In this document: piece after piece, positions 10,633 to 14,485 of the stretch
Layout of the letters: every line of letters begins with the position of its first letter
How positions within the stretch are numbered: position 1 is the first letter of the stretch
Assembly (NCBI GenBank): GCA_043797265.1
Contig: JAZDPV010000005.1
Location: 1-27,972, forward strand
Reading direction: 5' to 3'
From: an archaeon
GTDB lineage: Archaea > Nanobdellota > Nanobdellia > Pacearchaeales > GW2011-AR1
DNA: 27,972 nt
Notes under the pieces: generated by a model
The model's database searches: none
Told to the model about the DNA's origin: nothing
The model's input: the letters and a program-made list of their open reading frames with translations, nothing else
Made by a program: the position numbers and the translations under genes

Positions 10633-12015
10633 TTATTTTTTCTTTTTAGGCAAATCTAATTTTATGTGGATGTCTTTGAGTTGCTTGTCTGATAATTTTG
10701 ATGGGGTGTCGAGCATGAGGTCGCGGGCTTCTTTGTTTTTTGGGAAGGCGATTGTTTCACGGATTGATTCTGCGCCGAGAATTATTTGGACTAATCGGTC
10801 AAGTCCCCATGCGATTCCGCCGTGAGGTGGTGCTCCGAATTTTAGGGCGTCGAGGAGAAAACCGAATTTTTCTTCTTGTTCTGTTTTATTTATTCCGAGA
10901 ATTTCGAAAACTTTTGACTGGATTTCTTGTTCGTGGATTCTGATTGAGCCGCCGCCGATTTCGGTTCCATTGAGGACGACGTCGTATGCGATTGATTTTG
11001 CCGTCGCTGGATTTTTATTGAATGACTGCATTTCTGGGTGAGTGAACGGGTGATGGGTTGCGATTAGTTTTCCTTTTTCTTCCGATTTGTCGAAGGCGGG
11101 GAAGTCGGTTACCCAGCAGAATGCGAATTCTTTTGGATTGTTTTTATTTTCTCTCAAGTCGGGACGGTCGATGTTATATTTTTTCATTGATTCGTCGTAG
11201 GTTAATCTTTGGAATGGGATTTTGACGTTGATGTTTAGGATTTCTTTCCAGATTTTTTGGAGAAGTTTTTCTGTTAGGTTGATTATGTCTTCTTGGGTTA
11301 TGAATGACATTTCGATATCGAGCTGAGTGAATTCTGGTTGGCGGTCGCTTCGCAGGTCTTCGTCGCGCATGCATTTTGCGATTTGGAAATATTTTTCGAA
11401 GCCGGCGACCATTAGGAGTTGCTTGAAAAGTTGCGGGGATTGCGGGAGTGCGAAGAATTTGCCGGGCTGAGTTCTCGACGGGACAACGTAGTCGCGTGCG
11501 CCTTCGGGTGTTGACTTTGCGAGGATTGGAGTTTCGAATTCTGAGAAACCTTTTTCGTGAAGGAAGTCGCGGATGATTTTTATTATTTTGCTTCGGAGGA
11601 TTAGATTTTTTTGCATCTCGGGTCGGCGTAAATCCAGGTATCTGTATTTTAGTCGGATGTCTTCGTTGGTGTCTTTATTGTCGAGGTCGAATGGGAGCGT
11701 CGGGCATTTGTTGTAGATTTCGAGTTCTTCGATTTTGATTTCGACTGTTCCGGCTGGTGAGTTTTTGTTTTCGGTTCCTACTGGTCTTTTGTTTACTTTG
11801 CCTTTAATTCGGACGCAGGATTCTTTTGTCAGGGATTTTGCCGTCGTGAAATTTGTTTCGTCTTTTGCCGTCGTGATTGTCTGGACGGTTCCGGTGATGT
11901 CGCGGATTTCGAGGAAGATTAGTTTGCCGTGTTCGCGGATGGTGTCGACCCAACCCTTGATTTCTACTTGGGAATTTTCTTTTGATGGGAGGTCTTTGAT
12001 TGTTGTTCTTTCCAT
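10633..12015 (-). CDS. aspS: Aspartyl-tRNA synthetase, bacterial-type, lacking the GAD insertion domain; probably non-discriminating
   Basis: OB-fold N-terminus, RLKYRYLDLRR, STPEGARDYVVPSR, ALPQSPQLFKQLLM, motif 2 RDEDLRSDRQPEFTQLDIEMSF, motif 3 GAPPHGGIAWGLDR; only 460 aa. Confidence 0.95.
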   Translation of the reverse strand: MERTTIKDLPSKENSQVEIKGWVDTIREHGKLIFLEIRDITGTVQTITTAKDETNFTTAKSLTKESCVRIKGKVNKRPVGTENKNSPAGTVEIKIEELEIYNKCPTLPFDLDNKDTNEDIRLKYRYLDLRRPEMQKNLILRSKIIKIIRDFLHEKGFSEFETPILAKSTPEGARDYVVPSRTQPGKFFALPQSPQLFKQLLMVAGFEKYFQIAKCMRDEDLRSDRQPEFTQLDIEMSFITQEDIINLTEKLLQKIWKEILNINVKIPFQRLTYDESMKKYNIDRPDLRENKNNPKEFAFCWVTDFPAFDKSEEKGKLIATHHPFTHPEMQSFNKNPATAKSIAYDVVLNGTEIGGGSIRIHEQEIQSKVFEILGINKTEQEEKFGFLLDALKFGAPPHGGIAWGLDRLVQIILGAESIRETIAFPKNKEARDLMLDTPSKLSDKQLKDIHIKLDLPKKKK

Positions 12016-12127
12016 AAGGAGTTATGTTAAGTGGGGTTTTTAAGAATTTGGTTGAATAGGGAATTGAGAGGGCGCTTCGCAAGGATGAGGAGACGCTTCG
12101 CGAGGGTGGGGGAGGATTGGTGGAGGA

Positions 12128-12203
12128 GGGGAAGGGGAAAATTAGAGAACCTTCGGTTCTCATATCTTTGGCGGCTTCGCCGCCCCGCGCGGTGCGCGCG
12201 CGG
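12128..12203 (+). repeat. Dispersed three-hairpin repeat, copy C
   Basis: GGGGAAGGGGAAAATTAGAGAACCTTCGGTTCTCATATCTTTGGCGGCTTCGCCGCCCCGCGCGG; preceded by two CGCTTCGC(A/G)AGG units within 12071-12106. Confidence 0.9.
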
Positions 12204-12236
12204 AAGGTTTTTATAGTTTGAAATTTTTTGTTTGCA

Positions 12237-12392
12237 ATGAAGAGAAAAGAGTTTTGGCTTGGTGCGATTTCGGGGGCGGTTGGTGCTGGGTTTGGTTCGG
12301 CGTCGGGTTCGAATAATTTGTTAATTGTCGTCGCTGTTGGGGTTGTAATTTCTTTGTTGGTTGCGTGGGGGATTAGTGGGGTTTTGAAGTAG
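12237..12392 (+). CDS. Small hydrophobic 51-aa membrane protein (not in the ORF track)
   Basis: MKRKEFWLGAISGAVGAGFGSASGSNNLLIVVAVGVVISLLVAWGISGVLK; TTTTTATA box about 25 nt upstream. Confidence 0.65.
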   Translation: MKRKEFWLGAISGAVGAGFGSASGSNNLLIVVAVGVVISLLVAWGISGVLK

Positions 12393-12429
12393 GTGGTTGA
12401 TATTGAGATTTACATCGCGATTTAAAGAA

Positions 12430-13080
12430 GTTGATTTTTCAGAGATGAAACAAGCCCTCGATTTTCTCCCTGAGCGAATGAAATAAGCGATTGGCTGAGA
12501 AAATCAGAGCTGGCGAAGTTTCCTCGAAAAATCAATTTGGGCTGAGAGGGTGCAACCCTCGAACCTGTTAATGCCTGTTCAACGACCTGAGGGCATCAGC
12601 CCGAAAATGCAATGTGGCAAGCGAGATTAATTTTAGCAAATTTTAAGGGTGGGGAAGGTGTGCCGATAGTTTTAAATAGTCATTTTATAGTAGTATAAGT
12701 ATGGTAGAAACAAGAAATTATGAAGTTGAAATGAGTTATAATCCTCAAAGAGTTGTGGCTCTATTCATAAGAGATTTATATCAAAGATATGATTTGGAAA
12801 GTCCAAGAGTTGTAAACTTAGAAAGAATTGAAGCAAAAAGAAAGGGAGTTGCTAAAACAAAATTTAGACCTTTATCAAAAAAATCTGCATTAGAATTGAC
12901 TAGCAATATTCTAGACTTTCCAAATACTAGCATAAGAATAACGGCAATATAAGACTTCTATAGGCACACCTTCGGTGGGGGTTGGAATAACTAAAATTAA
13001 TCTCGCGCAGAGTTTTTTCCCGCAGGAAAAAATTTCGTTGAACACGCTGGAAGTATGAATAAATTTGGGTTTGTATACTT
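12430..13080 (+). other. Large structured non-coding element (ncRNA or ssDNA mobile element) enclosing a small gene
   Basis: Nested stems 12430-12535 and 12539-12602; arms 12621-12636/12991-13006 (16/16) and 12654-12669/12958-12973 (15/16); long-range 9-bp pair 12576-12584/13036-13044. Confidence 0.6.
12701..12952 (+). CDS. Hypothetical 83-aa basic protein inside inverted arms
   Basis: ATG start, TTTTAAATA box at 12670-12678; A-rich codon usage unlike flanking + strand genes. Confidence 0.65.
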   Translation: MVETRNYEVEMSYNPQRVVALFIRDLYQRYDLESPRVVNLERIEAKRKGVAKTKFRPLSKKSALELTSNILDFPNTSIRITAI

Positions 13081-13102
13081 TTTTGGTATGGAAGCATAAA
13101 TT

Positions 13103-14485
13103 TTATGATAATTTTTTTAAAATTTCTGCAACTTCTTTGCCAGAGATTTGTCCTTTGAATTTGTTCATGAGGAGTCCCATATAGGCGCTTTGGGATAGTC
13201 CGGGTTTTTGTTTGATTAATTTTTTGATTTCTTGTTTGAGGTTGATATTTGATTTTTCTATTGCTTCTTTTAGGGATTTGCCGTCGGAGATTTTTTGCAT
13301 TATTATTTTTATTTCGTTCTCGGATATTTTTTCGTTTTTTAGATTTTCGAGAATTTCTTCGAGCTTGTCGGTTTCTATTTTTTGTTTGGGCTGAAATAGT
13401 GTCAGCATTTTGGCGATGAGGTTTGGGTTGTTGTGTTCTTGGATTAGGAGCTTGAAATCTTCGACTTTGTTTTGCTTGAGAATTAGTTTTATTAGTTCGG
13501 GGTTGAGGCCGAATTCGTCGAGATAGGATTTGTGTTCGGAGATTAATTTTGGAAGATTTTTTTTCGCGTCGTCGATAAGTTGTTTTGAGATTTTCAGGAG
13601 TGGGACGTCGGTTTCGGGATACATTCGCGCGGCGCCGGGCATTGGTCTCAGGAATTTTGATGAGCCGTCGGGGAGAGCGCCTCGGACTTCGTTTTCGCAG
13701 GATTTATTTTTGACGCATTCGAGTTGTCTTTCGATTTCTTTGTTGATTGTTATTATCATCATTTTTGGGTCTTGGAAACCTTTGATTTCGACGCGCTTGC
13801 TTCCGGCGATTGAGATGTTGAGGTCTTGGCGGATTGTGCCGATTCCGCGTTTTACTTTGCAGGCCCTTAATATTTCTCCGATTTTCAGGGCGGTTTCTTT
13901 TATTTCTTCGGGGGTGTGCATGTGCGGGCCGGTTGCGATTTCGACGAGAGGAATTCCGAGTCGGTCGAGCTTGTAGGTTTTTGAATTTTCATCTTCGGAT
14001 ATTGGTCTTGCTGCGTCTTCTTCGAGCATGATTGCGTCGATTGGGATTTCTCCTGATGAGATTTTTACGTAGCCGTCGTGGGCGATTAGCGCTGTTCGTT
14101 GGAAGCCGGATGTGTTTGAGCCGTCGATGACTGTTTTTCGCATGACTTGAGTGATTGGGAAAATTTTGCAGTTTAATAAGTGAGAAATTTGGAGCGCGAT
14201 TTTCAGGGCTTCTTGGTTGATTGCGTGCGGCGGTTCTTCGTCGAGTTCGACGAGGCAATTTGTGTCGTAGACTTGGTAAGTGAATTTTTTGTTTTTTGTT
14301 TTTTCGTGGGCGACAGCGACGTCGATTTCGCCGGTTTCGCCGATGACGGGATTTAGGGTTCTTTCGATTTCGTATTGTGGTTCGTCGTTTCGGAGGAGGG
14401 ATGGGCAGTCGCAGAAAAGTTTGTGAGTGTCGAGCTGCTGGTGGATTTCCAAACCAGATTTTAGTTTTAACTTTTCGTAGTCCAT
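13103..14485 (-). CDS. gatE: Glu-tRNA(Gln) amidotransferase subunit E, short form
   Basis: LKSGLEIHQQLDTHKLFCDCP, CLVELDEEPPH, MRKTVIDGSNTSGFQRTA, RGIGTIRQDLNISI, RPMPGAARMYPETD. Confidence 0.95.
   Translation of the reverse strand: MDYEKLKLKSGLEIHQQLDTHKLFCDCPSLLRNDEPQYEIERTLNPVIGETGEIDVAVAHEKTKNKKFTYQVYDTNCLVELDEEPPHAINQEALKIALQISHLLNCKIFPITQVMRKTVIDGSNTSGFQRTALIAHDGYVKISSGEIPIDAIMLEEDAARPISEDENSKTYKLDRLGIPLVEIATGPHMHTPEEIKETALKIGEILRACKVKRGIGTIRQDLNISIAGSKRVEIKGFQDPKMMIITINKEIERQLECVKNKSCENEVRGALPDGSSKFLRPMPGAARMYPETDVPLLKISKQLIDDAKKNLPKLISEHKSYLDEFGLNPELIKLILKQNKVEDFKLLIQEHNNPNLIAKMLTLFQPKQKIETDKLEEILENLKNEKISENEIKIIMQKISDGKSLKEAIEKSNINLKQEIKKLIKQKPGLSQSAYMGLLMNKFKGQISGKEVAEILKKLS

Follow-up and report, generated by a model that had tools for sequence, protein, structure and literature searches.

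The window analysed here, 27,972 nucleotides (nt) of DNA (contig C5), belongs to an archaeal genome (G000) of 625 kb that is 83% complete. Between a class II aspartyl-tRNA synthetase gene (aspS) and gatE, it carries a small open reading frame (ORF) of 54 amino acids (aa) and a hairpin-rich segment that encloses an orphan ORF (Table 1). A first-pass annotation had taken these hairpins for one large structured RNA with a pseudoknot-like long-range pairing, perhaps a ribozyme, an intron or a mobile-element RNA. Our analysis suggests instead that the region is probably a degenerate, lone copy of an integron-like junction between mobile gene cassettes, one that would fold as single-stranded DNA.

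The hairpin-rich region is an insertion. The order aspS, 54-aa ORF, gatE recurred in 12 of 30 loci of the genus. Five genomes have an empty site (G005, G018, G022, G011, G014): no more than ~20 nt separate the stop codons of the 54-aa ORF and gatE, and the gap is 70 nt in G012. Unrelated inserts of 440-1330 nt occupy the same spot in G031, G023, G019, G025 and G003, and only G000 has the window-type element there among the 12 syntenic loci compared. By BLAST, the element is single-copy in G000 except for a weak leader match on contig C1, where the R1 covariance model shows a well-formed family site.

Table 1 Features of the window around the inserted segment. Letters (a) to (f) are those of the first-pass annotation; I1 to I7 are inverted repeats; MFE, minimum free energy.
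Feature	Position	Strand	Remarks
aspS, class II aspartyl-tRNA synthetase	10633-12015	-	flank of the element
54-aa ORF	12228-12392	+	upstream flank of the inserted segment
Whole inserted segment	12394-13100	.	~707 nt, between the stops of the 54-aa ORF and gatE
Leader arm	12409-12427	+	fits the exact 21-nt family pattern; within R1 match 12403-12587, 34.2 bits
Leader box	12411-12414	+	TACA (family AACA)
Leader bulge	12415-12416	+	TC
11-nt L arm	12417-12427	+	GCGATTTAAAG
Variable hairpin Ha (a)	12428-12538	+	base AAGTT.../...AATTT; nested stems; I4 12428-12440/12526-12538, I7 12460-12468/12497-12505
Hairpin Hb	12546-12560	+	GAGGG-TGCAA-CCCTC, after junction AATTTGG 12534-12540; covaries across the family
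Degenerate 3' arm	12561-12579	+	two TGTT, 12566-12569 and 12576-12579; family form CTTTAAATCGC-TGTT
Cassette start	12580-12620	+	CAACGACCTGA, hairpin GGGC-ATCA-GCCC 12591-12602, then GAAAATGCAATGTGGCA
5' arm of long stem (c)	12621-12669	+	16-nt perfect arm, G-rich internal loop GGGTGGGG, then GAAGGTGTGCC; I1 12621-12636/12991-13006, I2 12654-12669/12958-12973
AT-rich cargo	12670-12957	+	28-32% GC; orphan 83-aa ORF 12701-12952
3' arm of long stem (c)	12958-13006	+	I1, I2
Hairpin (d)	13007-13036	+	GAGTTTTTTCC-CGCA-GGAAAAAATTTC, paired 13010-13036; seen in sequence and MFE analysis
Cassette end	13036-13044	+	CGTTGAACA, complementary to TGTTCAACG 12576-12584 (pair e); I5 12573-12585/13035-13047
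Possible second-site remnant	13045-13100	+	CGCTGGAAG ... AATTTGGG; leader likeness by eye
Terminator-like hairpin (f)	13051-13080	+	followed by T6; present in the MFE structure
gatE	13103-14485	-	downstream flank; then gatD

The structure of the region is real and conserved, as the first-pass annotation had held. A 661-nt stretch folds at -188.4 kcal/mol, compared with -148.1 ± 6.2 kcal/mol for 20 shuffled versions (z -6.5; none of the 20 as good). All complementary segments that had been listed are present to within 1 nt, including the nested hairpin (a), the long stem (c), hairpin (d) and hairpin (f) with its T-run. For the proposed multibranch domain (b), the segments exist, but its closing helix GGGCTGA/TCAGCCC is absent from the MFE structure and is not kept in homologues. 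This helix also crosses a recombination breakpoint, as other metagenome contigs diverge from the window at 12540/12541. The supported element within the closing region is the small hairpin at 12591-12602, which is kept with compensatory changes as GCCC-ATCA-GGGC in G010:C14, AGAAATC-TTT-GATTTCT in G010:C57 and GGGC-GTA-GCCC in L127.

No known RNA family was recognized in the element, in agreement with the first-pass annotation, which had found no match to group I or group II introns, RNase P RNA or signal recognition particle (SRP) RNA. At the gathering threshold, Rfam returned only a tRNA outside the element for the whole window; in 12380-13110, searched up to E = 10, nothing was better than E = 1, and seven homologous loci searched up to E = 0.1 gave no match. 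The RNase P RNA of this genome lies elsewhere (G000:C7:2318-2615, 83.1 bits, just below the 84-bit Rfam gathering score). Of 61 relatives, 42 have an SRP RNA, which lies on other contigs than those with element homologues; none was found in the 83% complete G000. Given the lack of Rfam matches and the location of these RNAs elsewhere, the element is none of them. Several candidates were considered. The Ha hairpin of G007 and domain (b) of the window resembled the SRP Alu domain, a candidate ruled out by SRP RNA on other contigs of G007 and G010, and RNase P RNA was ruled out by its location in G000. A likeness of GTTCAACGACCTGA to the R element of group I introns had neither Rfam support nor a host gene, a C/D-box sRNA in (a) had only a weak snoTBR5 match (15 bits, E = 1), and no bulge-helix-bulge motif of an archaeal intron was seen at the insert edges.

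A family of folded sites and the cassettes between them

The exact 21-nt leader of the element occurs in at least 120 contigs of metagenome-assembled genomes of Woese-, Pace- and Nanoarchaeota. Within the order, 40 of the 401 genomes (29 of the 153 genera) carry it, in one to three copies each, and a reversed-pattern control gave 0. Among 2.9 million viral contigs, the exact leader had no match. In 61 relatives searched by BLAST, pieces of the element were present at two places in G010, in G007 and in G014; in G007, the leader and hairpins are shared and the interiors are different. Six contigs with family copies (L065, L058, L091, L117, L120, L083) are binned as Parcubacteria, Patescibacteria, Dojkabacteria, Gammaproteobacteria or Desulfobacterales. 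L091 has archaeal ArlJ/FlaJ-like genes and is therefore probably mis-binned; the others are ambiguous, L117 having polysaccharide genes of bacterial type. In L122, the leader directly follows the apparent 3' end of a tRNA gene (GGGTTCAAATCCC...).

The architecture of the sites was read from 126 leader occurrences and 77 parsed unique elements. About 6 variable nt are followed by AACA, a bulge (TC; a second type of leader has TAT), an 11-nt arm, AAGTT and the hairpin Ha; then come AATTTGG, the hairpin Hb, frequently with a TGCAA tip, the complementary 11-nt arm, TGTT and again ~6 variable nt. All 38 elements of the alignment have AACA and TGTT unchanged, and the window copy has TACA. The bulge of 2-3 nt is found on the leader arm only, with no two-sided spacer. 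Ha ranges from 9 to more than 60 nt and Hb from 8 to 50 nt, their covarying types are combined freely, and site cores reach ~180 nt. The G007 homologue of Hb, for example, is GGAAAAATTCC-TGCAA-GGGATTTTCC. Within Ha, the window has the internal-loop motif CCTCG / CAGAGCTGG. An asymmetric internal loop of CCTCG against CAGAGCTG(G/A) recurs in many long Ha hairpins, sometimes nested twice (window 12454-12459 with 12506-12514; L058, L087, L147), and may be a protein-binding feature.

Covariation supports this structure. In the alignment of 38 short elements, the named structure pairs 84.7% of cells, a level reached in 0 of 500 shuffles, compared with 75.5% after shuffling and 38-47% with slid partners. 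Eighteen pairs changed on both sides, and double changes are numerous in Ha and Hb; the outer Ha pairs covary, and the Hb column pair 66/99 is GC in 21 elements and AU in 17. The 11-nt arms have at least four compensatory variants: GCGATTAAGAG is partnered by CTCTTAATCGC (56 cases) and GCGATTTAAAG by CTTTAAATCGC (11 cases), with no cross combinations, and further pairs are GCGGATAAACG/CGTTTATCCGC in L149, GCGATTTAACG/CGTTAAATCGC in L127 and another in G000:C1. For 46 copies, many of them cut by contig ends, the generic pattern found no return arm.

The sites form arrays. By profile search, 46 of the 120 loci listed hold 2-6 copies at a median spacing of 1066 nt, none of them in mixed orientation (0/46), and the R1 model found six copies in L121. 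The variable flanks follow a rule that links neighbouring sites. The 6 nt that follow TGTT pair with the 6 nt in front of the AACA of the next site: on average, 4.62 of the 6 positions are complementary, and 31 of 65 comparisons are perfect. The mean is 2.84 against the site's own pre-AACA flank (8 of 143 perfect) and 2.57 for random pairings of family flanks (about 2% perfect). An earlier flank-pairing count had the same direction (19/83 downstream vs 3/83 upstream). Each inter-site segment thus described has ~10-nt terminal inverted repeats of the form TGTTxxxxxx...xxxxxxAACA, as expected of a cassette that was once circular and had one complete site. For the attC sites of integrons, PMC2727003 likewise describes an outer box whose pairing reaches 9-11 nt.

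In the window, TGTTCAACG and CGTTGAACA are such a cassette-end pair. They lie within I5, a 13-nt match at 92%, and correspond to the 9-nt pair (e) that had been read as pseudoknot-like pairing within a single RNA. The pairing stood, as it covaries across the family; a pseudoknot is not supported, since the segments mark cassette ends and the supposed loop in homologues consists of cargo genes, 0.1-5 kb long and on either strand. By our own arithmetic, about one lone 9-nt inverted match is expected by chance in 650 nt, so that pair (e) is meaningful only through the family-wide test.

The cargo of the cassettes is diverse. The 72 longest ORFs between sites match 111 Pfam families, with 10 being S-adenosylmethionine (SAM) methyltransferases; among the others are DNA methylases, restriction enzymes (GmrSD, Mrr), acetyltransferases of the GNAT type and many single families. 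A GGGYGGG motif flanking the cargo was considered as a general feature and rejected, because exactly two copies occur in only 5 of 77 cassettes, which represent one cassette type, that with the stem (c) arms.

Sequencing data document the shuffling of modules. Among the runs found to contain the stretch, none was an RNA run. In four DNA runs from four studies (X1-X4), contigs at least 90% alike cover 12412-12657 and 12974-13044, and the cargo at 12658-12969 is uncovered. Contigs leave the window sequence at discrete breakpoints: 13044 (one contig in X1 and two in X3, one of which continues into another leader type), 12654 (three in X2, one in X4), 12986 (two in X2, two in X3, one in X4, with matches beginning at 12974/12986) and 12619 (one in X4, continuing as L115), besides 12540/12541. 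The Ha interior (12445-12521) is swapped for another module in four contigs of X2 and X3, and L115-type copies have a 15-nt hairpin in place of 12620-13009. In L115, the order is permuted: a stem (c) arm, hairpin (d) and CGTTGAAC stand directly before the leader, followed by the Ha, Hb and cassette start of the window. Separate modules that are reshuffled and permuted in this way do not support a single large RNA with a pseudoknot. The suggestion that the region belongs to a mobile element is supported.

A tyrosine recombinase beside the arrays

When the 1079 ORFs of the 120 loci listed were clustered, the top clusters were SAM methyltransferases (16 ORFs in 15 loci) and a tyrosine recombinase of ~270 aa (10 loci). 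All ten recombinase genes are on the strand of the element, and nine are downstream of a site. At eight of the ten loci, and also on G000:C1, a cassette ends in ...AAC and is followed by a small palindrome, ~100-130 nt before the recombinase start. On G000:C1, a host gene of the amino-acid kinase family is followed by a well-formed site that scores 84.7 bits with R1, an AT-rich cassette (three small genes; start TGTTAGCC, end GGCTAACA), a 38-nt near-palindrome (AACATCTATTAGATA..TATCTAGTAGATGTT), the recombinase gene and an RNase P p30-like gene. The small palindromes at other recombinase loci are different, and array sites have 60-150 nt between their arms; a core site of the Xer/dif type is double-stranded, with a spacer of 6-8 bp between two arms of ~11 bp.

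The recombinase resembles XerA. It scored 246, 236 and 231 bits with the XerA model NF040815 (cut-off 220), and 218 bits in one case. With the integron-integrase model TIGR02249, the scores were 206, 225, 195 and 187 bits, all below the cut-off of 265, and the match fell into two stretches that skip profile positions ~180-251, the IntI-specific region. The best solved relatives are PDB 4a8e, then 5hxy XerA (XerA-like), and then IntI4. Two types of recombinase are found in 41 genomes of the genus. One is near-universal, ~37-41% identical to the C1 protein, and includes the protein of G000:C18. The second, accessory type is 41-87% identical to the C1 protein and patchy, in ~16 of the 41 genomes. 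The L149 recombinase shares 40% identity with the C1 protein and 39% with that of C18.

An independent test gave the same association. For each type, 16 loci were taken by protein rank alone, and the gene with up to 7 kb upstream was searched with R1. Sites were found at 10 of the 16 accessory-type loci (17 hits, all on the strand of the gene), compared with 0 of 16 for the housekeeping type. At each of the six accessory loci that gave no hit, the contig ends within 2 kb upstream of the gene. Contigs G023:C22, G003:C26 and G004:C23 end ~40-160 nt upstream of the accessory recombinase gene, and housekeeping-type loci are mostly mid-contig; such ends are expected if repeated sites break the assembly.

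State and surroundings of the window copy

The modules of the window recur separately elsewhere. The cassette-start module also stands 3' of TGTT in L115, L127 and partly L100. The 5' arm of stem (c) precedes another gene in G010:C57 than in the window, and the 3' arm occurs in G014:C33 and, immediately upstream of the leader, in L115; judged by these homologues, stem (c) is a conserved arm pair that holds different cargo in different places. In L115 and L127, the strands homologous to hairpin (d) (GAGTTTTTTCTTCGGC ... GCTGAAGAAAAAATT) enclose a reverse-strand gene, so that hairpin (d) forms there the base of a stem that likewise holds a gene. The cassette end CGTTGAACA is directly followed by TCGCGATTAAGAG in L115. 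The 83-aa ORF within the cargo has no Pfam or NCBIfam match, and a homologue search returned only the ORF itself. By eye, a TATA-like TTTTAAATAG lies ~29 nt upstream of it. A perfect 12-nt inverted repeat (ATTTGGAAAGTC / GACTTTCCAAAT, 12792-12803 and 12914-12925) was seen inside the ORF.

The window copy scores 34.2 bits with R1, and most other copies in the same search score ~45-95 bits. The low score is due to the degenerate 3' arm, which, as read from the sequence, pairs poorly with the leader arm. The leader has TAC for AAC, CCTGTTAATGCC and a second TGTT take the place of the return arm, and beyond 13044 there is only a faint leader likeness, with no second site found by R1 in 13045-13100. 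Because of the altered AAC, the lost return arm and the truncated next site, the copy is probably an inactive remnant that no longer recombines. Since the odd return arm is also present in L115 and in contigs of three runs, it may be a variant rather than a sign of decay. The remnant was perhaps inserted at this variable spot by the C1 recombinase acting in trans.

Two further features were observed near the insertion. Between aspS and the 54-aa ORF, at 12040-12215, there is a GC-rich stretch of ~120-170 nt with several short GC hairpins. It is a repeat, and G000 has at least 14 more copies that are 73-96% identical (on C5 at 10074, 10166 and 21607; seven on C12; two on C2; also on C16 and C14), and a 217-nt contig of run X1 is identical to window 12028-12244. 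The repeat is separate from the cassette-site family and absent from the 120 family loci listed. In addition, gatE of nine relatives (G035, G006, G061, G062, G036, G020, G017, G028, G034) gave a two-piece match within a single open frame of ~616-638 aa, which suggests an insertion of ~120-150 aa near residue 260, possibly intein-like or an extra domain.

An integron-like reading and its rivals

We tentatively propose, with confidence somewhat short of even, that DPANN archaea (Woese-, Pace- and Nanoarchaeota) possess an integron-like gene-capture system run by a second XerA-type recombinase without the IntI domain, which would act on large, branched sites of folded single-stranded DNA and whose modules and cassettes would be exchanged among many genera. 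Of the window region itself, we consider it likely that it comprises one folded recombination site (12409-12579: leader arm, two variable hairpins and return arm) followed by one gene cassette (12580-13044), with TGTTCAACG and CGTTGAACA as the two halves of the outer box of such a site. In the family, sites in the same orientation alternate with accessory-gene cassettes in arrays that have the second, XerA-type recombinase gene at one end. Probably the + strand folds as single-stranded DNA, so that the AACA/TGTT box and the 11-bp arm imitate a recombinase core site, and the recombinase would swap strands near AAC/GTT, letting cassettes leave as circles and enter other sites. We infer the DNA nature of the folded form and the action of the recombinase on it, as well as the exact crossover and the polarity.

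The likeness to integrons is extensive. As in attC sites, whose outer boxes follow the consensus RYYYAAC/GTTRRRY, an imperfect palindrome is bounded by AAC ... GTT, with inner inverted arms, unpaired bases on one arm only (in the DPANN sites a bulge, with no two-sided spacer), a variable and sometimes branched terminal structure, and an outer box that extends to ~10 nt only with the far end of the cassette itself. As in integrons, arrays in one orientation have sites ~1 kb apart and diverse accessory cargo, with a tyrosine recombinase at one end beside a simpler site. The folding strand is the sense strand of the recombinase gene, just as the bottom strand of attC, the one recombined in classical integrons, is the sense strand of intI. 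The cores of the DPANN sites reach ~180 nt, compared with 57-142 nt for attC, and the DPANN cassettes have extra conserved hairpin modules.

Several points weigh against this proposal. Two features that define integrons are lacking: the recombinase has no IntI-specific domain, and the cassette ORFs are not co-oriented (of 77 intervals, 34 have the ORF on the strand of the site and 40 on the other one, and 3 have no ORF), whereas integron cassettes generally have short ORFs that point one way and are expressed from a promoter in the platform. As the recombinase scores as XerA, it could have another role. The bulge is on the arm nearer the array start, which appears to be opposite to the classical attC layout relative to the integrase. 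The sites are far more conserved (an exact 21-nt leader in 29 of 153 genera) than attC usually is, attC sites being said in PMC2727003 to lack sequence conservation. Conserved hairpin modules in the cassettes are not required by a pure recombination model. No circular contig was found among the complete loci; the sole apparent case was an artefact, a locus of 45 nt. Because kin genomes are not independent, the counts overstate the support, and the same holds for the independent test of the recombinase, which covered upstream flanks only. Finally, covariation and strand bias suit RNA as well as single-stranded DNA.

It is rather unlikely that the cassettes carry a transcribed structured RNA, such as an element that processes or stabilises cassette transcripts, an antisense regulator or a guide-like RNA, with pair (e) as a real long-range RNA helix. 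This idea is favoured by compensatory changes in all helices, by the hairpin and T-run after the window ORF, and by strong folding of a single strand: with RNA parameters, 61 of 71 unique elements favour the + strand (with DNA parameters, 66 of 71). Such an RNA, having no Rfam match, would be new. However, pair (e) would close loops of 0.1-5 kb with genes on either strand, modules are swapped at sharp DNA breakpoints, the only enriched neighbour is a DNA recombinase, and by eye there is no promoter at a fixed distance upstream of the leader. The hairpin loops point in the same direction: GNA triloops account for 62 of 155 loops on the + strand and 0 of 154 on the - strand. The loops are often C-GNA-G triloops, for which PMC13037366 reports a much lower stability in RNA than in DNA: the melting temperature is 76.5 C for d(GCGAAGC) and 39 C for r(GCGAAAGC). 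C-G-closed GNA loops constitute the 'mini-hairpin DNA' motif, which occurs at single-strand initiation signals according to PMC13037366 and PMC3201870. The GNA loops of the + strand therefore favour, but do not prove, a single-stranded DNA form. Known large RNAs (group I and II introns, RNase P, SRP, HEARO, GOLLD, ROOL) are similar in having several hundred nt, many covarying hairpins and an ORF in a stem. The element differs from them in that it has no Rfam match and its parts are modular and permuted at the DNA level.

We consider it quite improbable that the folded sites are other single-stranded DNA signals, for replication priming or initiation, or are transposon ends moved by an HUH or DDE enzyme encoded elsewhere, with the recombinase as a mere neighbour. 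The mini-hairpins CCGAAGG and GCGAAGC do occur at initiation signals of phage G4 and RSF1010 (PMC13037366), and the 10-nt terminal inverted repeats of the cassettes are transposon-like. Against this, no transposase (of the IS200/IS605 or any other type) or Rep was among the protein clusters present in at least 3 of the 120 loci listed, where not every ORF was annotated, and the recombinase was. One ISH3 transposase, in L058, is a single case. The strict relation of strand and position to the recombinase gene is unexpected for a mere neighbour, and the viral contigs gave no hits. A new self-splicing intron or ribozyme, as first proposed from the size, the many hairpins, the ORF inside a stem and the long-range pairing, is almost certainly wrong: no match to group I, group II or any ribozyme was found in Rfam up to E = 10, no host gene is interrupted and two convergent genes abut in relatives with empty sites, and the parts are separate and in permuted order elsewhere.

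Other Xer-based systems can be compared with the proposed one. Integrative mobile elements exploiting Xer (IMEX), in which the folded single strand of the CTX phage mimics dif, and the pdif modules of Acinetobacter plasmids use the housekeeping XerCD of the host and the chromosomal dif. They are similar in that a Xer-family recombinase moves small modules and, for CTX, in the use of a folded single strand as substrate. They differ in that the DPANN arrays adjoin a second, patchy paralogue, and the near-universal paralogue has no sites nearby. The Vibrio cholerae repeats (VCR) of sedentary chromosomal integrons are highly similar attC sites of ~120 nt repeated along a chromosomal array, with similarity within a species or genus. 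Similar branched sites are also repeated in the DPANN arrays, whereas the near-identical modules there are common to many genera and habitats, and mixed. A branched structure of VCR is described in PMC2727003.

Archaeal integrons have been reported by Ghaly et al. 2022 (PMC9668308), who describe six IntI genes in four phyla and integrase-lacking attC clusters in Nanoarchaeota; some of the DPANN arrays may already be listed there as attC clusters. A term search of a 2021 review of archaeal tyrosine recombinases (PMC8371274) gave no mention of DPANN, hairpin sites or such arrays. Our literature search on DPANN and archaeal integrons, XerA, attC and cassettes found no description of this system, and one on structured RNAs of Woesearchaeota found nothing relevant.

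For the annotation of genomes, the window is a warning that intergenic DNA rich in hairpins and enclosing an ORF can represent a junction for recombination and not an RNA gene. If the integron-like reading is true, streamlined symbiotic archaea with genomes of 0.5-1 Mb would keep a dedicated device for trading accessory genes such as methyltransferases, restriction enzymes and acetyltransferases. Because the sites are unusually conserved, they could then mark horizontal transfer among uncultured archaea. Integron-like recombination would not need the IntI-specific domain, which bears on the origin of integron integrases from Xer-type recombinases, and these archaea would provide a living example of a Xer-type enzyme acting on folded single-strand sites, a step proposed for that origin.

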